64,000 bases of DNA, taken from contig JBEKWR010000006.1 in NCBI GenBank assembly GCA_049512935.1, forward strand, positions 64,001 to 128,000, read 5' to 3'. A program made the translations under genes and the position numbers. Below are positions 5,267-50,089 of this stretch, one piece after another. Numbering within the stretch: the first letter of the stretch is position 1; every line of letters starts with the position of its first letter. This DNA comes from Candidatus Bathyarchaeia archaeon (GTDB taxonomy: Archaea > Thermoproteota > Bathyarchaeia > Bathyarchaeales > Bathycorpusculaceae). The notes below the pieces were generated by a model. The model saw nothing but the letters and a program-made list of their open reading frames with translations, searched no databases and was not told the DNA's origin.

Positions 5267-5390
5267 GTGGCTGCCAGCTTTCCCAGGTTCACGTGGCCTA
5301 AGACCACACTACAGCTGGAAACGGAACACGGTTTAACTTCTGAGTTCGGAATGGGATCAGGTGGAACCCGTGCCCTTTGACCGGCAAACC
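5267..5390 (-). rRNA. rrf: 5S ribosomal RNA, unlinked from 16S/23S
   Basis: Reverse complement contains CACCTGATCCCATTCCGAACTCAGAAGTTAAACC; terminal helix TGCCGGT/GCTGGCA; ~122 nt. Confidence 0.95.
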
Positions 5391-9876: not shown

Positions 9877-9954
9877 TGGTGGGCCGAGGCGGATTTGAAC
9901 TGCCGACCTTTCGATTATCAGTCGAACGCTCCAGCCGTGCTGAGCTACCGGCCC
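9877..9954 (-). tRNA. tRNA-Ile(GAT), encoded CCA
   Basis: GGGCCGGTAGCTCAG...TTCGA-CT-GAT-AA-TCGAA...GTTCAAATC...TCGGCCCACCA cloverleaf. Confidence 0.95.
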
Positions 9955-10051
9955 ACCGAATAGAGCACTGAAGTTAAATATTATGTTGGTTTATAAGAAT
10001 TGCCGTAAATCTTTTAATGCAACTCCATTATTGAGTTGTTAGGTCAGGTTT
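9955..10051. promoter_or_regulatory. Divergent promoter region for the two tRNA genes
   Basis: 97-bp AT-rich spacer with TATA-like TTTATAAG (~9990) and TTTTAA (~10012), each ~35-40 bp from a mature tRNA 5' end. Confidence 0.55.
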
Positions 10052-10130
10052 GGGCTCGTAGCCTAGCACGGATTAAGGTGTCGGCCTTCGGAGCCGGAGA
10101 TCGTGGGTTCAAATCCCACCGGGCCCGCCA
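10052..10130 (+). tRNA. tRNA-Arg(TCG), encoded CCA
   Basis: GGGCTCGTAGCCTAG...TCGGC-CT-TCG-GA-GCCGG...GTGGGTTCAAATCCCAC-CGGGCCCGCCA. Confidence 0.95.
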
Positions 10131-40775: not shown

Positions 40776-43187
40776 TTACGGGCTAATTATTAGTACATCT
40801 GCTCCGCCCGTGAGCGTTACCTGCACATTGCTGAGGCTTGTTATGTTAATTTGTTGACCGCTGGATGCCCAAGTTGCTGCATGCGACCTATTTGAGCTGA
40901 GACCTAACCCTGTTAAGTTAAGCGTTAACGGCATGTTCTGACTGAAATTCTGCAAGTTCATTATCGAAACGCCAATCTTCCCATTTGCCAACGTAAAGAC
41001 CTTCAAATCAGCAAGCGAATTAGAACAACTAACCGGGCAATTTGAAGCCCAATATATTGCCCTGTTAAGCATCCCTCTGTCATCAACAATGGAGCTAGCC
41101 GATCCCCAGCAATTCCCGTAGACGAACCTCCCTGAACTGCCACTGTAGTATATTCCCAGTTCAAGCGAGCCATCACTGTATTTTACCAACGGAATCATTC
41201 CTGCCGTAGCGCCCATTGAGCCAGCATTGCTATAGCCTGAGTAGGCTTGACCGAAAGTGTTGCCTATTATCGCTTTGGCATACGAGTTGGTTACTTGGCT
41301 GCTAGACAGGGTTGTTGCGCTGGTAGATGAACCTAAATCACCAGTTAATTGGAGTGTGCTCATGCACTGAGCGTTGCCTTGCCCCATAAACATCGTGTTC
41401 GCAAAATTCGCTTGATAGCGTTCACTGCTGAAGATAACGTTCAAACTGCCTTTCGAATAGAGATTGAGCAGGCTTTGGTAGGCGTTTCCGCCGATTGTGC
41501 TTCCCGAATTTTCGCATGCGTCAAGAAAAACCGTGCCCATCCCAGACACGAAGTTGCTGCCCGTGTTGTTCAAGTTCACCGCATCGGTGTACTGTGCAAT
41601 CGTAAAGTTGACTGAAAACGGACCTGCAGAGTCAGGGTTCAGGTAAACGGGTTGAACATCAACTGGACCCAGCCACGACGGCGTTATCTGTCCGTTCAGA
41701 GTGTTTGCCATAGTGGTAACCCACGTAGCCATCGCCTGCCCGCTGTACGCTGAGTCACTCCAACTTGTACCCGACGGAGCCCAAACCAGAAGCCAATCGG
41801 GATCAACAGCCCTGTACTGGACGCCGTTGACCCAAACGTAGGTTTCAATCATCGACAAGTACATCTGCTTCCAAGCCCAAGTCGGCATAACTGAGGAGCC
41901 GCCGTAGGCTAACGGCAACCCGCAGATGCAGTGGGCGCTTGGATCTTTGTCCTTGACGAGGGCGGAAACGTAGGCTGAGTATCGTCCAAGCATGCTGAGG
42001 TCACCCCACCACTCGCAGTCAATGTAGTAGAGACTGAACGAGTTGTACTGCGCGAACATGGTCAGGTTCTCCATCCCCGTGGGATTGTTGATGCCGTTGT
42101 CAGCCCACGTGCTCGAAAGGTCTTGCGAGATTATGGTTCCAACGTAAAAGCTGCTGGGACGACTGTTAAATATCTGGTTTATTTGGGCGTACAGTTGGGC
42201 AAAACGCGTTTGCCAATACTGCCACCACTGCAGGTTATCGTTAGTTGTTATCCAACTGATTTTTTGAGAAGTCGTGTAGCTTGCCCAGTTCGACGGCAAC
42301 CCCACGGCGTAGCTTGAACTCGCCCACGAGGCTATGCTTTGACCATCACCGTAAAACCAATCTGACAAGCTGCCTGTTCCAATCAATCTTCCAAAAGGTT
42401 GATTCGTACTCCAAACCCAATACATTGCTTGATTTGTCAACCCATTCCACCCGTCGATGCCGAACCACCCGTCCCACTGGAAACTTCCATCTGAAATCAT
42501 CTGCGAAAGCCGCTGAACGTAAAGGGTCGCCAAGCACGCTCCCGCAGGGATGTTTCTTGCAGGGTCAGGAGTCGCGTAATCAGCCCAGAAGTTCACCATC
42601 ACCGTGCCAGGGTGCAGTTGATCGTACCTGACGCCGCTGCCTGAAACAGCTATAAGCTCAGGGTGCTGCAAAGTCAGATAATTGTAAATGTATGCGTCAC
42701 TTGTGGTCGGCGTGTTGCCTGGGGAGTAAATGACTTTCCAGCCGAGCCTGTGAAACTCGTCGATGACGGATTTTAACTGGGCGTAAGTTATTTTGCCGTA
42801 GGGTCCTTCCCAACTTTGACTCGCATTCCAACCCGTGTAGCTGATGACGCTAAGTATGCCGCTGGAATAATCAGTCATGATGATGCCTGTTCCCCAAGGG
42901 TGAGCGGCAACGTAAGCGTCAACGGCGCTAGGCGAAGTTAAGCTATCAATCCAGACGCAGCGAATCAAAAACTGCGGTTTGACGGATGCGGCTGGCGAAA
43001 CGCTCTGGCTTATGGCTCCGCTTGCCTGGACGAGGGTTTGGGTTTGTGAGGTGGCGGTGCTGACGTCTATGAAGCACGCTGCGGATAGGATGGCGATTAT
43101 TGCCAAGGCTGCGACTGTTCGGTTTTTCATTTTTGTAGGTTTCCCCGTTTTTGGGTAGCAGTTTTTTTTGGTGTCAGTCAGCGACAA
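40776..43187 (-). CDS. Large secreted protein, probable glycoside-hydrolase-like
   Basis: Signal peptide from ~MKNRTV; Trp/Tyr-rich barrel-like region (DGWFGIDGW, WWQYW); C-terminal beta-sandwich. Confidence 0.6.
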   Translation of the reverse strand: MSLTDTKKNCYPKTGKPTKMKNRTVAALAIIAILSAACFIDVSTATSQTQTLVQASGAISQSVSPAASVKPQFLIRCVWIDSLTSPSAVDAYVAAHPWGTGIIMTDYSSGILSVISYTGWNASQSWEGPYGKITYAQLKSVIDEFHRLGWKVIYSPGNTPTTSDAYIYNYLTLQHPELIAVSGSGVRYDQLHPGTVMVNFWADYATPDPARNIPAGACLATLYVQRLSQMISDGSFQWDGWFGIDGWNGLTNQAMYWVWSTNQPFGRLIGTGSLSDWFYGDGQSIASWASSSYAVGLPSNWASYTTSQKISWITTNDNLQWWQYWQTRFAQLYAQINQIFNSRPSSFYVGTIISQDLSSTWADNGINNPTGMENLTMFAQYNSFSLYYIDCEWWGDLSMLGRYSAYVSALVKDKDPSAHCICGLPLAYGGSSVMPTWAWKQMYLSMIETYVWVNGVQYRAVDPDWLLVWAPSGTSWSDSAYSGQAMATWVTTMANTLNGQITPSWLGPVDVQPVYLNPDSAGPFSVNFTIAQYTDAVNLNNTGSNFVSGMGTVFLDACENSGSTIGGNAYQSLLNLYSKGSLNVIFSSERYQANFANTMFMGQGNAQCMSTLQLTGDLGSSTSATTLSSSQVTNSYAKAIIGNTFGQAYSGYSNAGSMGATAGMIPLVKYSDGSLELGIYYSGSSGRFVYGNCWGSASSIVDDRGMLNRAIYWASNCPVSCSNSLADLKVFTLANGKIGVSIMNLQNFSQNMPLTLNLTGLGLSSNRSHAATWASSGQQINITSLSNVQVTLTGGADVLIISP

Positions 43188-43794: not shown

Positions 43795-44100
43795 GTGGTT
43801 GGAATGGCTGAAAACGAGGCAATGGTAGAGAGAATTTCCAAAGTCTTAGGGGTTCCGCCGAAGGAACTTGTAAAAAAAGGATTAGAAGAGCTGCTTGAGG
43901 CGCAGTTAAGGGCTTGTTTTGCTGAAATAACTGAAATAAAGAACAGATACGACGTTAAAAGTGCCTCCGAGCTTGAGGGGAAAATTGCAAAAGGAAACGT
44001 CGACGAGCACCCAGCTTGGGAAGACCTGATCCTCTTAGAAAACTTGGAGGAACGCGCCAAGAAGATTAAAAAAGAGTCAGTGGCTCTCAAGCATGCCTAG
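43795..44100 (+). CDS. Small putative antitoxin paired with the DUF6516 gene
   Basis: ELEGKIAKGNVDEHPAWEDLI motif; overlaps downstream gene. Confidence 0.7.
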   Translation: MVGMAENEAMVERISKVLGVPPKELVKKGLEELLEAQLRACFAEITEIKNRYDVKSASELEGKIAKGNVDEHPAWEDLILLENLEERAKKIKKESVALKHA

Positions 44101-44494
44101 CGATTCTTTGGAAGAGCTGTTCAATCGCCTTATCGACCTCATTCTTTCGCAATTTTCAGACTATGGTTGTTGACGTTCAACTTCGTTTTAGTCCTTCGGG
44201 CTCAGTTGAAAGGCTGCGGATTTTCCTGATTGATGAGACTTTTATTGATGTCTGGCTATCATCGTCTGGAAAATACTCTTACCACTGGGAACAAAGACAC
44301 GTTAGGGGTCTAATACACGCCATGATAACGCACCGCACAGCAAATGGAAAAAGATCAAAACGTTCCCTAAACACTTTCACGAAGGCACAGAAGACAACGT
44401 CAAAGAAAGCAGTGTTCCCGACGACCCTACAGAAGCCATAAGCTACTTTCTAAGCTTCGCAAGAAAATTCCTAAAAAAACAAAACGCCAAATAA
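44093..44494 (+). pseudogene. DUF6516 (TumE-like) toxin gene with two compensating frameshifts
   Basis: MPSDSLEELF... then shifted LRIFLIDETFIDVW...YSYHWE then original frame RHDNAPH..W....TFPKHFH...TAA at 44492-44494. Confidence 0.75.
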
Positions 44495-44796
44495 CGTGGT
44501 CTCATCACGCTTGGGTCGCTTACCGCGTGGACAGCACACCTACAACATTAGCCCACGACCTCAACAGCAAAGTCGCAACCCGCAAAAACCTTCAAACCTC
44601 CCAAATTGGAAAACCAAAACCCAAGCAAAACCGAACCTGCCGCCGAAAAAACCCAAAGTCGCAACGCAAAAGCAGAAGCCAAGCCTAAACCAAGAAAGCA
44701 ACCAGAAACGCAAAGCGCCAAGGCGGAAAGTCGCAACTTTCACCAAGGCAAAAGTCGCAACTTAAAAACATCTAGAAAAAGCCAACCAAAAAAAAC

Positions 44797-45144
44797 TCAC
44801 ACTTTTCCAAACTGCTTCCTAAGCCTACGCACTTCCAACGCAAAATTCACAGGCCGCGCACACACAAGCTTCAATCCAAGCCTTTTACAAAGCAACTCAA
44901 GAATCGTCTCCTCAAGAATCGAAGCACCACCCAAAATCTGCCGACGCCCAAAACCAACAATGTTCCGCAACTCCTCAGAAAACAACTCAGGATTACAAGA
45001 AACCAAAGCCAAAGGCAAACCCCGCTTCTCCAAAAAATCCCGAATAATCTCCGCGTTAGTCTCACCCAAACAATAACGAATCGTATCATAAACAGCACCA
45101 GCTAAAACAGCATCAAAGTCAACCTGCTGCTTAACCAAACCCAA
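44797..45144 (-). CDS. Small conserved archaeal helical protein (DUF3227/NitrOD-like)
   Basis: LGETNAEIIRDFL...PELFSEELRNIVG...ILEETILELLC motif. Confidence 0.65.
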   Translation of the reverse strand: MGLVKQQVDFDAVLAGAVYDTIRYCLGETNAEIIRDFLEKRGLPLALVSCNPELFSEELRNIVGFGRRQILGGASILEETILELLCKRLGLKLVCARPVNFALEVRRLRKQFGKV

Positions 45145-47132: not shown

Positions 47133-47867
47133 TTAGCTTTTCGTCTCTGCTAGTGCTTCACTTGATTTAGTCGTGTCTACTGTTTTTTTCTTCTCTGCCA
47201 TGAAGTCTATAAATTTCTTGGCTAGGTCGTAAGCTCCTTGCTCAAATAATCCCTTAAGCAAGTCGCCAGAACTGAGAGTATATGGAGCAGTTTCAGTATA
47301 TTGAGGTGATTGACCTTGCTTTGGATTTGCTTCGGAAGTGTTTATTTGGAGTGACTCTTGCATTTGATTAGCCTCATTTTGAGTTCCTTTTAACGAATTA
47401 AGGTAATGTATATCATCCAAATAATCGTTTCTGACCTTTTGCGAGATTTTTTTTGCGTCGTCAGGTACTATTTCAGCAATTTGCTTTAAGTCTACCCAAA
47501 AATCCACATCGGGCAGTTCTACATTCTTACTTGTATATTTCTCGTAAAATATCTTCCATAAAGGGATATTTACGATAGCTTCTTTGACAGCGCTAAAAGG
47601 GTCGTCTGCCTTTGTTGGATGAGCTATTCTTGCGCCAAGTTCCGATACTTGAACAAATCCTCTTCCAACAATTAAGCCATAAACTCTCATTGCTGCTATT
47701 TTGCTTAAATAGCCTCCAGTTATGCCTGTGTGCCCTAGGAATACAGCCAACATTTTTTTGTCGTCTATTGGATTAGTTCCAAATTTTCCCCACATCTTTT
47801 GCAGGTTATCGATTAGAGTAGGCTGGAGTCGCCAATCGGGGTATTCAAATTTCGTTCCTACTTTCAT
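47133..47867 (-). CDS. Winged-helix hypothetical cargo protein
   Basis: YP...LGH..GG....IAAMRVYGLI...VSELGARI...EAIVNIPLW pattern. Confidence 0.65.
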   Translation of the reverse strand: MKVGTKFEYPDWRLQPTLIDNLQKMWGKFGTNPIDDKKMLAVFLGHTGITGGYLSKIAAMRVYGLIVGRGFVQVSELGARIAHPTKADDPFSAVKEAIVNIPLWKIFYEKYTSKNVELPDVDFWVDLKQIAEIVPDDAKKISQKVRNDYLDDIHYLNSLKGTQNEANQMQESLQINTSEANPKQGQSPQYTETAPYTLSSGDLLKGLFEQGAYDLAKKFIDFMAEKKKTVDTTKSSEALAETKS

Positions 47868-47975
47868 TTTTACACACGCAACAAATAATACAATATAGAT
47901 GTAAAATTTAAAGGTTGCGCAATTCTACAAGATTTAGGAATGCTTATATTTAACTGTGTAGTAATTCCTATTTCA

Positions 47976-48092
47976 GGAGTAGTGAGAGGGTAGCGGTCTG
48001 GAAAGACTGACCACGCGAATAATATTGCGACACAAGCTTGGTGCAAACAGGCTTGTGAAAAAGGCGTGGATGCCTCTACCCTCTGCTGCTCT
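47976..48092 (+). ncRNA. Candidate 117-nt multi-stem RNA inside the transposon
   Basis: Stems AGAGGGTAG/CTACCCTCT, CGGTCT-GGAA-AGACTG, CCACGC/GCGTGG, CACAAGCTTG/CAGGCTTGTG; wobbles are G.U on +; TATA-like TTATATTTA at 47944-47952. Confidence 0.65.
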
Positions 48093-48102
48093 CGGATTGT
48101 CG

Positions 48103-48252
48103 CTATTTTATGACCGTTCGCTCTTTTATGCGTTTCTCCCATTCCGATTGCGAAACTATGCCTTTTTTATCGAGTAAATCAACTAGGCTTTCAAGCATAG
48201 TGCTAAGTAGGTTTATTTCTTCTTTCAAGTCTTCAATATTGGTTTTCTTCAT
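48103..48252 (-). CDS. 49-aa helical microprotein, third gene of the transposase operon (not in ORF track)
   Basis: MKKTNIEDLKEEINLLSTMLESLVDLLDKKGIVSQSEWEKRIKERTVIK*; AGGTG upstream; overlaps the RHH gene. Confidence 0.7.
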   Translation of the reverse strand: MKKTNIEDLKEEINLLSTMLESLVDLLDKKGIVSQSEWEKRIKERTVIK

Positions 48253-48406
48253 GTTTCCCACCTTTCGCAAGATAACCTTGTTCGGATAACCAATTCATGA
48301 TAATGGTGCGGAGAGTGTCTGATCGGGTTTGCCCGATTTTTCCTAGCAACTCTTTGTCTAAAGTGTTGACAACACCATCAGGTAAGGATACTAAGATTTT
48401 TTTCAT
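48233..48406 (-). CDS. 57-aa CopG/ribbon-helix-helix regulator (not in ORF track)
   Basis: MKKILVSLPDGVVNTLDKELLGKIGQTRSDTLRTIIMNWL...; ATGA overlap with the transposase stop. Confidence 0.8.
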   Translation of the reverse strand: MKKILVSLPDGVVNTLDKELLGKIGQTRSDTLRTIIMNWLSEQGYLAKGGKHEENQY

Positions 48407-49320
48407 TGTGTTACCATCTCTAACGCTTTATCATTCGCTTGTTTTGTTTGAACTGCTCTTGATACTGTTTCCGTTTCGTATTTTGTTGCTCGGTCAATTA
48501 AGGCTTTCCAGTTGTTGGGTACTTCCATTCTTGCTGCTTGAGCTGGAGTTTTTCCACCTAAACTTTGGTGTGGTCTAACGTAGTTATAGTGCACCGTGTA
48601 ACCTTCAAGAATGTCTTTTGTTGATTCAAAAGCTTTTAGTCCTCTCATGCATCTTGTTCTGTCTTTGAGTGTTCCATGTAACCGTTCTACTATATTGTTG
48701 GTCTCTCTTGCTCTTATGCCAACTCTTTGAACTAACTCTGGTCTTGTGTCTTTTCGCATAGTGTAAAATACCTTGTTAAAGGCTGCATTGTAAACATGAC
48801 TGCCGTCCACGAATACTGCTCTCGGTCTAACTCTGCTCTGTTGAACTCCTTTCTTGAAAATAGCTACTGTGTCTTCAAAGGTTCTTGTGTTTGAAATGTG
48901 AGACGCCACTAAGAATCGAGTATCCTCATCTATCATTTCCCAGAACCAAATGTTCCGTCCTTCGCATGAAAGCATTGTTTCATCTTCATGCCATAAACCT
49001 GAAAGTTGCGGTATAACAGTTGTAGTGTATTCTTTCACTAGTTTGCTGTATTTCTTTAGCCAATTAAGAATCGTGACTTGGCTAATTCTTTCGCCAAAAA
49101 TTTGCTCCAAGTTTCTCTGTGCTTTACGTAAGCTTAGACCGTCATAATAGAAGTTTAGGGCTGCTACTATTAGGTTTTTATCGTTTCTCATTTTGGAGAA
49201 TTTGCCGTTTGAGAAAAAGCGTTTTCCGCATTCTTTGCATTTGTAGACCTGCGTTCCTTTAATTGAACCGTTTTTGACGATTTTTTCGCTGTTGCAATAT
49301 TTGCAGTTCATCAGTTTCAC
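48403..49320 (-). CDS. IS6 family DDE transposase with N-terminal zinc ribbon
   Basis: CKYC...CKEC, HTH (GLSLRK...TILNW), WHEDET, FVDG, NNIVERLHGTLK, HYNYVRPH. Confidence 0.92.
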   Translation of the reverse strand: MKLMNCKYCNSEKIVKNGSIKGTQVYKCKECGKRFFSNGKFSKMRNDKNLIVAALNFYYDGLSLRKAQRNLEQIFGERISQVTILNWLKKYSKLVKEYTTTVIPQLSGLWHEDETMLSCEGRNIWFWEMIDEDTRFLVASHISNTRTFEDTVAIFKKGVQQSRVRPRAVFVDGSHVYNAAFNKVFYTMRKDTRPELVQRVGIRARETNNIVERLHGTLKDRTRCMRGLKAFESTKDILEGYTVHYNYVRPHQSLGGKTPAQAARMEVPNNWKALIDRATKYETETVSRAVQTKQANDKALEMVTQ

Positions 49321-49321
49321 G

Positions 49322-49394
49322 CTCTTACAGGTATACTATAGGATACCTTACCGTATTTATATCTTGTGGTATAGCTTTAAGATACCTGTAAGAG
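49322..49394. promoter_or_regulatory. 13-bp inverted repeat enclosing the transposase promoter
   Basis: CTCTTACAGGTAT (49322-49334) / ATACCTGTAAGAG (49382-49394) around a minus-strand ATATAAA box. Confidence 0.65.
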
Positions 49395-49543
49395 ACTGCT
49401 CTCTTTTATGACCTTTACCAATATTAATTTTTTTATAATAAAACTTATAAGAAGAAGCCATTGCTCTATTATTATTAGTTTATTCTCCCTATCGTTCGTC
49501 TAGGACGGTAGGTATTTATTTGCGTTTTCGTCATTAGCTAAAC

Positions 49544-50089
49544 ATGGGCAAAGCAGTTGTATTGATTGACGGTGGTTATCTCAACAAAGTTTTAGAGAAG
49601 ATATATCATAGACCACCGTTTAGTTATGAAAAATTTTGCAATAAATTATGCGAGAAAGCTGAATGCCAGCGTGTTAGAACTTACTACTACAACTGCCCAC
49701 CTTTTCAAAGCAATCCTCCAACCGAGATAGAAAGCCAAAAAACTGCTGATTATGATTGTTTTATTAAATTCTTGAAAGATACCCCGCGTTTCTTGTATCG
49801 ACCTGGAAGACTGCAACGCATAGGAGGAGAATTTAAGCAGAAACATGTTGATGTGCATTTATCTGTTGACCTTGTCAAACTATCCTGTAAACACAGTATC
49901 GATAAAGCTATTCTGGTTACAGGAGATAGTGATTTTGTTCCTGCCGTAGACGTTGCAAAAGAGGAAGGAGTGGTCACAATTCTCTATTACTCAAACATTC
50001 CACCGATGTACATCCATCGCGAGATATTAGAGAAATGTGATGAAAAATATTTAATTGACGCAGATATTATGGCTACTTCAAGACCCTAA
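49544..50089 (+). CDS. NYN domain (LabA/DUF88, PIN-like) ribonuclease
   Basis: VLIDGGYL, RTYYY, KQKHVDVHLSVD and LVTGDSDFVPAV motifs. Confidence 0.92.
   Translation: MGKAVVLIDGGYLNKVLEKIYHRPPFSYEKFCNKLCEKAECQRVRTYYYNCPPFQSNPPTEIESQKTADYDCFIKFLKDTPRFLYRPGRLQRIGGEFKQKHVDVHLSVDLVKLSCKHSIDKAILVTGDSDFVPAVDVAKEEGVVTILYYSNIPPMYIHREILEKCDEKYLIDADIMATSRP

Follow-up and report, generated by a model that had tools for sequence, protein, structure and literature searches.

A short GC-rich stretch beside a transposase gene of an uncultured archaeon raises the question whether it encodes an RNA and, if so, what ties this RNA to its mobile neighbour. The stretch lies in a window of 64,000 nucleotides from a Candidatus Bathyarchaeia archaeon (assembly GCA_049512935.1, contig JBEKWR010000006.1, positions 64,001 to 128,000), numbered here from its first letter. 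A preliminary description of the window proposed a novel multi-stem RNA of 117 nt that sits inside a transposon, has its own promoter and acts as a partner of the cargo or of the transposition machinery. Structured RNAs linked to transposons have repeatedly proved to be functional components of new machines, such as the guide RNAs of TnpB and IscB and the bridge RNAs of IS110. The IS6/IS26-like family, to which the neighbouring transposase can be compared, is important for genome rearrangement and, in bacteria, for the spread of resistance. To our knowledge, almost no small RNAs are known from Bathyarchaeia. In our literature search we found no RNA reported for IS6/IS26-like elements, and the searched text of a review on the IS6 family does not contain the word RNA and mentions a passenger gene in one member only (PMC7986276).

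Results

We found that the GC content is 0.44-0.51 across 47950-48099 compared with 0.28-0.38 in the flanks, in agreement with the proposed GC-rich island. On the + strand, 47970-48100 folds with a minimum free energy (MFE) of -60.4 kcal/mol, while shuffled sequences reach a mean of -36.1 (sd 3.2; z -7.66) and none of 200 folds as well; the - strand gives -40.4 (z -3.76). The closing helix, the hairpin with the GGAA tetraloop and the extended arm, which had been read from the letters, are all present in the fold (Table 1). A K-turn, a UUGCG-UGCAA loop-loop pseudoknot and an H/ACA layout were compared with the RNA by eye, and none of them fitted.

Table 1. Positions of the RNA, its parts, its putative promoter elements and its neighbours in the window.
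Feature	Positions	Strand	Basis or remark
P0001, 244 aa, no Pfam domain, winged-helix-like N-terminal part	47133-47867	-	divergent from the RNA
Second A/T box (AAAATTTAAAGG on +)	47894-47905	-	conserved in three divergent loci, alignment A11
TATA-like box TTATATTT	47944-47951	+	24 nt before G47976
Structured RNA candidate, ~117 nt	47976-48092	+	fold z -7.66; 23 homologous copies aligned in A10
P1 closing helix, 5' strand	47976-47993	+	pairs with 48076-48092; MFE structure
Parts of the P1 5' strand: outer part; bulged A; inner part with GGGUAG	47976-47983; 47984; 47985-47993	+	
Hairpin capped by a GGAA (GNRA) tetraloop	47994-48009	+	insertion in the window and G026, shorter in L037
P2, 5' strand CCACGC	48011-48016	+	pairs with GCGUGG 48064-48069; family-consensus helix
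Internal-loop segment GAAUAAUAUUGCGA	48017-48030	+	near-invariant; family consensus GGACAAUAUUGCGA; alignments A5, A7, A10
P3 hairpin (the extended arm), 10 bp and 7-nt loop	48031-48057	+	sequence and length variable across the family
3' internal-loop segment AAAAAG, then P2 3' strand GCGUGG	48058-48069	+	family consensus GAUAAAG for the loop
P1 closing helix, 3' strand	48076-48092	+	MFE structure and 23-sequence alignment
RHH-like small gene, here two overlapping ORFs (48233-48406, 48103-48270)	48103-48406	-	relatives
Recurrent transposase and RHH unit (insertion sequence proper)	48121-49386	-	homology to 8 copies in other genomes
IS6/IS240-type DDE transposase, 305 aa, N-terminal Cys-rich part	48403-49320	-	PF13610, E 4.1e-20

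Homologues of the RNA were found as 23 distinct copies, all of them within one Bathyarchaeia family, where 13 of 120 genomes of the genus and 7 of 151 genomes of the family carry it. The genome studied here holds a single copy, and the number per genome is one or two overall. In a class-wide sample, 2 of 151 genomes gave a match; one is the genome of the window itself, and the other, a weak match of 22.8 bits, was judged false because the family motifs are absent from it. Pattern scans of viral contigs returned no match, and two Nitrososphaeraceae loci with RHH and transposase genes showed no such RNA element. The covariance model built from the homologues matches 47974-48094 in the window, with 63.2 bits in R1 and 76.9 bits in R2.

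These relatives support a real structured element whose helices covary. In the alignment of all 23 copies (A10), 91.5% of the cells pair, a value that 0 of 500 shuffles reach; shuffled alignments pair at 78.3% and slid controls at 31-50%; since A7 and A10 were fitted to the structure of the model, these pairing figures are inflated. Changes on both sides of a pair were seen at 22 of the 25 pairs, in 74 cells, and a set of 12 sequences gave the same picture of covariation. The inner part of the closing helix (P1b) is 94.5% paired in the 23 sequences with both-side changes at 6 of its 8 pairs; P2 has them at 5 of 6 pairs, with a compensatory insertion in G026, and P3 at all 10. Moreover, four pair types occur among the covarying positions of P2 and P3, and P3 has been swapped for unrelated sequence of other length which still forms a hairpin, in relatives capped by GAAA, GUAA or GCAA loops. 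When folded one by one, all 20 other copies examined share the layout of P1a, bulge, P1b, P2 and P3 (z -2.07 to -5.77), and for 12 of them none of 200 shuffles folds equally well.

The family consensus is a rod, in which an outer stem GAG/CUC and an AAA bulge are followed by the almost invariant stem GGGUAGCGG/CCGCUAYCC, by P2, the loops and P3. The internal loop, GGACAAUAUUGCGA // GAUAAAG, is asymmetric and near-invariant in the 23 copies. Most relatives are without the GGAA-capped hairpin insertion of the window. In the window, forming P2 costs 3.3 kcal/mol (-54.8 vs -58.1), and two small hairpins of its MFE structure (CGCGA/UUGCG and AGGC/GCCU) are unconserved; relatives favour the long-range P2 in their place. 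A possible extra helix, UAUUGC/GUGAUA, of invariant sequence, appears in several single-sequence folds and is absent from the window.

The RNA family is previously undescribed and confined, as searched, to one Bathyarchaeia family. A scan of the whole window against Rfam 15 at gathering thresholds returned only a 5S rRNA and two tRNAs elsewhere. With the threshold relaxed to E<=10, 47700-48400 gave two lncRNA matches at chance level (E 3.9 and 9), and a search of 17 homologous loci at E<=1 returned no match over the RNA. ARAGORN called neither a tRNA nor a tmRNA here; it found only tRNA-Ile and tRNA-Arg at 9877-10130. The proposed novelty of the RNA was borne out by these searches.

The wobble pairs speak less clearly for a strand across the family than in the window. 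The window structure on the + strand holds 38 Watson-Crick and 7 G.U pairs, and all its wobbles read G.U on +, as had been described; on the - strand these pairs would be A.C mismatches. Across the 23 sequences, 31 G.U face 23 A.C wobbles (p = 0.34) on an alignment that is fitted to the + model, and across 12 sequences 13 G.U face 8 A.C; the wobble counts do not decide the strand family-wide. The + strand is the more stable one in 15 of the 23 copies and the - strand in 8, and the GNRA caps (GGAA, GAAA, GUAA, GCAA) occur in the + sense only. T runs of 4-6 follow several copies and are similarly frequent on the other strand.

In the window, the distance between the TATA-like box and the 5' end of the RNA agrees with the roughly 25 nt that had been stated. 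A GCTT(A/T)(T/A)AT box is found at the same place in G026 and G093, so that all three loci that have no same-strand gene upstream retain a TATA-like box some 24-26 nt before the RNA. Judged from these motifs, transcription of the + strand from a TATA promoter belonging to the RNA is likely; the promoter taken by itself, which the description had claimed outright, is plausible. The second A/T box is likely the promoter of the 244-aa gene. At 12 further copies (9 of type B, 3 of type A1), a same-strand gene or remnant called by homology ends at or just before the RNA, and in a thirteenth, G090, a same-strand open reading frame, an RHH-like ORF of 196 aa, runs into its 5' end. Two metatranscriptome runs of one study, which hold 0.18-0.20 of the sampled words and whose contigs cannot show an absence of the RNA, yielded contigs at 48254-48457 and 48309-48500 with a depth of 2-5.5, at the junction of the transposase and RHH genes, and no contig over the RNA.

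The RNA lies divergent from P0001 and convergent with the small ORFs and the transposase, an arrangement that had been recognized correctly. P0001 flanks the 5' side of the RNA in all 7 type A loci; it has no Pfam domain, and its 20 homologue clusters offer neither a domain nor a useful name. Its AlphaFold model has a pLDDT of 78, and its Foldseek alignments are limited to winged-helix parts, those of methyltransferases and of MarR-type regulators. The designation as a winged-helix protein is tentative, since the best PDB match has an E of 0.09 and the alignments are partial. P0001 was rejected as an obligate partner of the RNA, as 7 loci with homologues of 29-39% identity are without it; one of these 7 has an IS6-type transposase. 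The RHH-like gene is a single ORF of 102 aa in G093, G141 and G076. Between its stop and the 3' end of the RNA there are about 10 nt in the window and about 10-15 nt in 6 loci. A Pfam scan of the neighbouring proteins returned PF13610 DDE transposases, NYN domains and zinc ribbons; type B transposases match PF13610 with E 1.4e-15 and 2.7e-19, together with rve and SWIM.

As to the protein with which the RNA co-occurs, 15 of the 23 copies adjoin a gene or remnant of an IS6/IS240-type (PF13610) transposase, 7 have no transposase match in the examined flanks, and no single protein gene is common to all copies. The claim that the RNA sits inside the transposon could not be upheld. The transposase and RHH unit recurs in 8 other loci where homology extends only over about 48121-49386 and the RNA is absent, and therefore the RNA lies outside the unit, directly against it. 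Copies in different settings are homologous up to the 3' end of the RNA and not beyond. In the window, the RNA begins at least 311 nt past the transposase stop, and in type B it lies in sense, downstream of the transposase, where 5 of 9 copies are intact next to a 5'-truncated transposase. Among 30 related SWIM-type loci only 3 have the RNA, and it is found in none of 12 further loci of the window's IS type.

It is the transposase-distal end of the IS that faces the RNA, at the 5' side for SWIM-type units (9/9) and at the 3' side for the window's type (6/6). One side per IS type fits better with inherited junctions than with repeated targeting. We searched 9 loci (four full ones of type B, five of type A) for inverted repeats between the RNA arms and the far IS end, 14 nt or longer and with up to 2 mismatches, and found none that was convincing; the few matches are low-complexity or A/T-rich words that look like chance. 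The flanks of RNA-less IS copies are unlike the arm sequence of the RNA. A miniature, non-autonomous IS derivative (MITE) was also considered and provisionally rejected. No terminal inverted repeats matching the IS, the ends of which are bounded by homology only, were found at the RNA, it occurs in one or two copies per genome, and no flanking duplication was found on reading the 23 copies.

Discussion

Overall, we favour the reading that the locus holds a small, independent RNA gene which belongs to the mobilome and moves together with IS6-type elements. We give the whole of this reading, a structured RNA gene of about 105-120 nt at 47976-48092 (+) that belongs to the mobile pool, lies next to IS6-type elements and acts in trans bound to protein, about an even chance. 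The RNA would be part of the accessory, mobile gene pool, placed against the transposase-distal end of IS6/IS240-type elements and outside them, and would most likely spread as their adjacent cargo. In the window it is likely read from its own archaeal TATA promoter, and elsewhere probably by read-through from the upstream gene. The RNA probably binds protein, and it would act in trans in this form, with the invariant stem, its A bulge and the invariant loops as the putative recognition surface. Its partner would be a protein that binds nucleic acids, either one from the mobile neighbourhood (the transposase with its zinc-finger/HTH part, the RHH protein, the winged-helix protein) or one of the host.

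The structure might instead serve in cis, as a 3' untranslated region that ends or stabilises the upstream mRNA of the same strand and has no free-standing function. The same-strand genes or frames that end at or before the RNA in 13 of the 23 copies (9 type B, 3 type A1 with a P0001-like gene, and G090) argue for this, as do the T runs behind several copies. However, such runs are about equally frequent on the other strand, and archaeal termination relies on oligo-T rather than on hairpins. Moreover, the upstream gene is divergent and the TATA-like box kept in the window, G026 and G093, and a mere stabiliser would need neither 14-nt invariant loops nor an invariant stem. The RNA also stays intact beside truncated, dead transposase genes in 5 of 9 type B loci and is found in 7 copies whose examined flanks have no transposase match, although a frame runs into G090. 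We regard the cis-acting role as rather unlikely.

It is also conceivable that the element works as DNA, a palindrome at the edge of IS6-type units which serves as a preferred insertion target or as accessory binding site of the transposase or the RHH protein, its two arms co-evolving through one and the same protein. For P1b such a reading is possible, as the near-invariant sequence of its arms is also expected of an inverted repeat bound by protein. The position of IS6-type units at the outer end of either arm and the wobble counts, which favour neither strand, point in the same direction. The conserved loops, however, are asymmetric, and therefore this part of the element does not form a DNA palindrome; the covariation of P2 and P3 with four pair types, the variable length and sequence of P3 and the GNRA caps in one sense only also speak against a DNA site. 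No convincing inverted repeat between arm and far IS end was found in the 9 loci, nothing similar to the arms is seen in the flanks of IS copies that lack the RNA, and the restriction of each IS type to one side fits inherited junctions better. Taken together, a DNA site is unlikely.

We hold a similarly low expectation for a coupling of the RNA or its gene to IS6-type DDE transposition, in which the RNA could be a decoy or mimic which binds the transposase or its RHH regulator and so tunes transposition, or its gene a landing pad with arms that recruit the transposase-distal ends of two different IS6-type clades. If such a coupling holds true, the RNA would be the first RNA component for IS6/IS26-like elements and a new ribonucleoprotein of the archaeal mobilome.

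In the arrangement of the window, the RNA could form the structured 5' part of an antisense transcript that runs convergently from its promoter into the RHH and transposase genes and lowers transposase expression, an effect that antisense RNAs have at other insertion sequences. It does converge on this operon, close to the RHH stop in 6 loci, and antisense transcripts at transposase genes of archaea are described in passages of PMC6640164. In 9 type B loci, however, the RNA follows the transposase gene in the same orientation, so that antisense action is not the shared function, and the RNA is missing from all 12 other loci of the window's IS type. Moreover, it does not overlap the start of the transposase gene, the site of the archaeal antisense RNAs reported in those passages. 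We consider an antisense role quite improbable.

An obligatory guide or bridge-like cofactor that base-pairs with donor ends or targets of an IS6-type transposase is close to refuted: the type B layout, in which the RNA adjoins the 3' end of the transposase gene and itself ends where the homology does, recalls the guide RNAs of transposon nucleases, but the loci without RNA (27/30 SWIM-type and 12/12 of the window's type) mean that it is no obligatory guide or cofactor, its unpaired segments are invariant across settings and do not vary with the flanks, a search of 16 loci for sites complementary to either conserved loop gave only scattered 10-mers with 2 mismatches at chance level and at no shared position, and the transposase is of the IS240-type DDE kind, not IS110-type or RuvC-type. 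In our reading the RNA is neither programmable as a guide nor a requirement of transposition, and the suggested partnership, if it means that the transposition machinery needs the RNA as guide or scaffold, is unlikely. We return to the small RNA gene that travels with IS6-type elements and compare it with known systems.

Like the REP/BIME elements, which are linked to RAYT transposases, lie between gene ends and are often landing sites of IS, the Bathyarchaeia RNA is a structured extragenic element tied to a transposase family. REPs are about 20-40 nt long, and a genome holds tens to hundreds of them, whereas the RNA has about 110 nt, invariant loops and one or two copies. The regulatory RNAs derived from IS, such as RNA-OUT of IS10, the 5'tnpA sRNA of IS200 and archaeal antisense RNAs, are likewise small, structured and linked to transposases, and the Bathyarchaeia RNA might conceivably be a regulator as well. 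RNA-OUT overlaps the 5' end of the transposase mRNA. Such an overlap is described for IS-derived regulatory RNAs in PMC6640164 and PMC12594629. In contrast, the Bathyarchaeia RNA lies past the 3' end of the transposase gene, outside the element and in either orientation; with its distance from the transposase stop in the window and its sense orientation in type B, we rejected an antisense regulator of the RNA-OUT kind.

The omega or reRNAs of TnpB and IscB (IS200/IS605, IS607) resemble type B in being structured RNAs at the 3' end of a transposon gene that reach the end of the element. The neighbours of the Bathyarchaeia RNA, however, hold a DDE transposase and no TnpB or IscB nuclease; no variable guide segment was seen, most related IS elements are RNA-less, and there is no Rfam match to those families. 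The bridge RNAs or seekRNAs of IS110 and IS1111 are also non-coding, structured RNAs of about 100-200 nt beside a recombinase gene. Bridge RNAs carry two programmable loops which covary with target and donor DNA, as described in PMC11208160, while the loops of our RNA are near-invariant in 23 copies and have no consistent complementary site in 16 loci. Here, the neighbour is a PF13610 protein, not a DEDD recombinase of the IS110 type, and most IS copies do without the RNA.

Our data provide a new resource from uncultured Bathyarchaeia, namely 23 copies of a well-defined RNA family together with its consensus fold and a covariance model. The RNA is found mostly at the end of IS6-type elements (15/23), and yet most such elements are RNA-less. 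This asymmetry makes it possible to test whether the RNA binds the transposase, the RHH protein or the winged-helix protein and whether it affects transposition. Even if it is only a stable RNA that hitchhikes, it would add a new family from archaea to Rfam.

Like IS6/IS26 elements, the neighbouring transposases have a catalytic DDE domain of the IS240 type (PF13610). Archaeal members of IS6 are distantly related to IS26, and none of them has been tested experimentally according to PMC6807381. From a single copy, IS26 carries adjacent DNA as a translocatable unit, and IS6/IS26 elements end in GG-tipped inverted repeats of 15-20 bp and have target duplications of 8 bp, as described in PMC7986276. 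At the IS6-type unit of the window, GG-tipped terminal repeats and 8-bp duplications were not identified. A GGTAT...GATACC motif is common to the unit copies on the transposase-proximal side, with no matching repeat at the other end. Direct repeats are present in the window at 48103-48118 and 49401-49416. In relatives, the chromosomal flanks of the window (44002-44797 and from 50142 onward) are widely separated or placed on different contigs.

Structure and conservation of the element

The element at window positions 47976-48092 belongs to a conserved, covarying set of structured elements of about 110 nt that fall outside any known family. Its G+C content is 0.44-0.51, compared with 0.28-0.38 in the flanking DNA. 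Folded as RNA, the plus strand from 47970 to 48100 reached -60.4 kcal/mol (z -7.66; dinucleotide shuffles had a mean of -36.1 and sd of 3.2, and none of 200 was as good), while the minus strand of the element reached -40.4 kcal/mol (z -3.76). The plus-strand fold, with 38 Watson-Crick and 7 G.U pairs, includes a closing helix, a GGAA-capped hairpin and a long arm. Hence, the preliminary description of a GC-rich island with these helices, the hairpin, the arm and an upstream TATA-like box was correct. It had also stated that the element is not a tRNA, 5S, SRP or hammerhead RNA by motif and had suggested comparison with Rfam and a covariance model of homologues. ARAGORN gave no match at the element, and no Rfam family matched it, either at gathering thresholds over the whole window or at E<=10 over 47700-48400.

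The first relatives came from a DNA search, from nhmmer and from a single pattern scan of metagenomes. A covariance model, R1, was built from four relatives with the structure set by hand, and a second, R2, later from 23 copies. Of 151 genomes taken as a sample of the taxonomic family, R1 matched 7; in the genus it matched 13 of 120. Two of 151 genomes sampled class-wide were matched by R2, one being the window's own; the other match (22.8 bits) was without the family motifs and was rejected. The viral contigs scanned gave no match. In total there are 23 distinct copies, one or two per genome and a single one in the window's own assembly; the distribution is patchy and accessory.

All 20 other copies that were folded singly share a common layout (z -2.07 to -5.77), and for 12 of them none of 200 shuffles equalled the native fold. 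This layout comprises seven parts. An outer stem, mostly GAG/CUC with a few further pairs, is followed by an A bulge of 3 nt, a stem of 9 bp (GGGUAGCGG/CCGCUAYCC) and a joiner that varies; then come the stem P2, CACG/CGUG with outer pairs, an asymmetric internal loop with GGACAAUAUUGCGA on its 5' side and GAUAAAG on its 3' side, and the terminal hairpin P3. The minimum-energy fold of the window copy has two small hairpins at the place of P2, and imposing P2 costs 3.3 kcal/mol; we assign P2, rather than these hairpins, to the family structure. The window and its close relative G026 share the GGAA hairpin as an insertion, of which the metagenome relative L037 has a shorter form.

In the 23-copy alignment, standard pairs fill 91.5% of cells, compared with 78.3% after shuffling of partners (0 of 500 shuffles reached the native value) and 31-50% when partners were slid, figures flattered by the fitting of the alignments to the covariance model. 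Both sides change in 22 of 25 pairs (74 cells) among the 23 copies, and in 15 of 25 in the 12-copy set. The outer pair of P2 is seen as G-C, U-A, C-G and A-U, and G026 carries a matched one-base insertion on both P2 strands. P3 is swapped wholesale between copies (ACAAGCUUG...CAAGCUUGU, CACCC-GAAA-GGGUG or CCUAG-GGGU-CUAGG) and forms a hairpin in every case. The inner P1 stem barely varies and thus gives little information on RNA pairing.

Genomic settings

Features of the window at and around the candidate RNA, with further observations
Feature	Position	Strand	Remarks
TATA-like box TTATATTT	47944-47951	+	24 nt upstream of first paired G
Candidate RNA	47976-48092	+
P0001, 244 aa	47133-47867	-	beyond the RNA; no Pfam match
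Transposase, 305 aa	48403-49320	-	IS240-type DDE domain, PF13610, E 4.1e-20
Short ORF, 57 aa	48233-48406	-	after transposase
Short ORF, 55 aa	48103-48270	-	overlaps the 57-aa ORF in a different frame
Direct repeats CTATTTTATGACCGTT / CTCTTTTATGACCTTT	48103-48118 and 49401-49416		bracket transposase+RHH unit
20-nt inverted repeat CTCTTACAGGTAT...ATACCTGTAAGAG	49322-49394		immediately upstream of transposase start
NYN-domain (PIN-like nuclease) gene	49544-50089	+	PF01936, E 4.3e-14; adjoins transposase-proximal end of unit
Zinc-ribbon protein, 92 aa	50211-50489		after NYN gene
803-aa ORF	40776-43187	-	no Pfam match
5S rRNA gene	5269-5388	-	apart from other rRNA genes
tRNA-Ile(GAU), tRNA-Arg(UCG)	9877-10130		divergent; near 5S rRNA gene

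All genes neighbouring the RNA in the window lie on the minus strand. The two short ORFs correspond to a single 102-aa ORF in G093, G141 and G076, and are split in two frames in L037 as in the window; the split could reflect a frameshift mutation, programmed frameshifting or the presence of two genuine genes. Pfam gave nothing significant for the 102-aa protein; judged by sequence, its N-terminal part resembles a ribbon-helix-helix fold. Homologues of this small gene (39-41% identical) occur in the Nitrososphaeraceae contigs L033 and L035, without an RNA of this family, so the small-gene family crosses archaeal classes. None of the 20 homologue clusters of P0001 carries a domain, and its model (pLDDT 78) gave weak structural matches to winged-helix parts only (best E 0.09).

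The final codons of the small gene are encoded by the first direct-repeat copy; the repeats may be a target duplication or a remnant of a second copy's end. The inverted repeat is likely an operator or element end. A related GGTAT...GATACC motif beside a TATA-like box occupies the same position in most other fetched copies of the unit (L080-L085, L087).

Two settings recur. In type A (the window, G093, a metagenome contig, G141 with two copies, G076, and G026 with a remnant of the small gene only), transposase and 102-aa gene converge on the RNA 3' end with a gap of 10-15 nt from the stop. P0001 stands on the 5' side, either on the same strand and ending at the RNA (three loci) or facing away (three loci and G026). 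In the nine type B copies, a transposase gene encoding 375-380 aa, with a SWIM and an IS240 domain, lies on the same strand as the RNA and runs into it. Five of these transposases (G286, G278, G273, G331 on C91, and the second copy of G020) are 5'-truncated at differing points with the last ~170-330 nt left, and an intact RNA accompanies each. Seven more copies have no transposase match within the flanks examined. The RNA persists where the adjoining transposase is truncated or absent. G034 and G288 (L068 5927-6713 and the matching region in L065) have a common gene pair downstream of the RNA, encoding a 100-aa DUF5678 protein (E 1.3e-6) and a protein of ~157 aa with a D-S-G motif and the look of a retropepsin-type protease, without Pfam match.

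The transposase+RHH unit of the window is widespread in the genus, and eight fetched copies align only over 48121/48132 to 49371/49386. The covariance model found no match in the 12 other loci of this type (the eight fetched, two own-genome copies and two from Nitrososphaeraceae). Of the 120 genus genomes, 51 encode SWIM-type transposases, frequently more than one each, and the RNA is present at 3 of the 30 best loci; it is absent from one transposase copy 83% identical to an RNA-linked one. The RNA-less SWIM-type copies diverge directly past the last conserved codons, and type B pairs from different settings lose homology within ~10 nt of the RNA 3' end. These limits and the RNA-less copies place the RNA outside both IS kinds, against the transposase-distal end. 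It had been described as lying inside the transposon and, by inference, as a partner of the cargo or the transposition machinery. These views are right only in part: it does abut the element and is IS6-linked, but it lies outside the unit and is missing from 27 of 30 SWIM-type and 12 of 12 window-type loci. The RNA is accessory, and dispensable for the adjoining elements. A second unit in the window's own genome (L029, G000:C5:62695-63887), 75% identical in protein sequence, has an in-frame TGA in its transposase, a disrupted small gene and no RNA alongside.

Strand and transcription

The RNA is probably made from the plus strand, as suggested by the GNRA caps, same-sense upstream genes, TATA-like boxes and CUCUAC-U ends. 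GNRA caps (GGAA in the window; GAAA, GUAA and GCAA) appear in the plus sense only, their complements not being special loops. In 12 copies (nine of type B, three of type A1), a homology-called gene or remnant of the same sense ends at or just upstream of the RNA, and one more copy, G090, has an open reading frame that enters its 5' end. Three loci (window, G026, G093) have a divergent upstream gene; each carries a TATA-like box ~24-26 nt upstream of the RNA and a second conserved A/T box, which likely serves that gene. A CUCUAC terminus with 4-6 U after it is found in many type B copies, but T runs are frequent on the opposite strand as well. It had been noted that all wobbles read G.U on the plus strand, which is true of the window but does not extend to the family (31 G.U versus 23 A.C cells, p = 0.34), and the minus strand folds better in 8 of 23 copies. 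In two RNA runs, contigs cover 48254-48500 only, off the RNA.

Discussion

Overall, our data describe a real, new RNA family of the transposon-associated structured kind. We propose that the element is an RNA gene on the plus strand that would act in trans, with the invariant stem, the A bulge and the loops as a putative protein-binding surface. The RNA may have spread as adjacent DNA carried by a single IS copy, as is known for IS26 (PMC7986276). The SWIM-type transposase stands on the 5' side of the RNA in nine of nine cases, and in six of six the window's type stands on its 3' side; this fits a small number of old junctions that have been passed on and have spread, more than it fits targeting that occurred repeatedly.

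A pure stabiliser of the 3' end of the upstream gene appears unlikely, since it would leave the invariant loops, the promoter-bearing loci and the survival beside dead genes unexplained. A site acting at the DNA level, not as RNA, is somewhat less probable still: it best explains why the inner stem is frozen and why the two IS types take mirror-like positions, but neither the behaviour of P2 and P3 nor the one-sense GNRA caps would follow from it. A programmable guide RNA is close to excluded, given invariant loops for which no complementary sites were found in 16 loci, the wrong enzyme family and the absence of the RNA from most element copies.

The nearest kinds to the proposed RNA gene are transposon-borne structured RNAs, namely omega/reRNA, bridge RNA and IS-derived regulatory RNAs. 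The type B layout is like that of omega RNA, but every testable defining feature fails. Our literature search returned no report of an RNA for IS6/IS26-like elements: the word RNA is absent from the searched text of a 2021 IS6 review (PMC7986276), a 2019 analysis, in the part consulted, treats archaeal IS6 members as distant and untested (PMC6807381), and IS621 bridge RNAs are the only such mention in the consulted text of a 2026 preprint on intergenic RNA clusters. An unrelated known RNA, DUF3800-X (RF02984, 69.8 bits), is found next to a DUF3800-like gene at L049 297-368 (+), ~760 nt upstream of the G142 copy.
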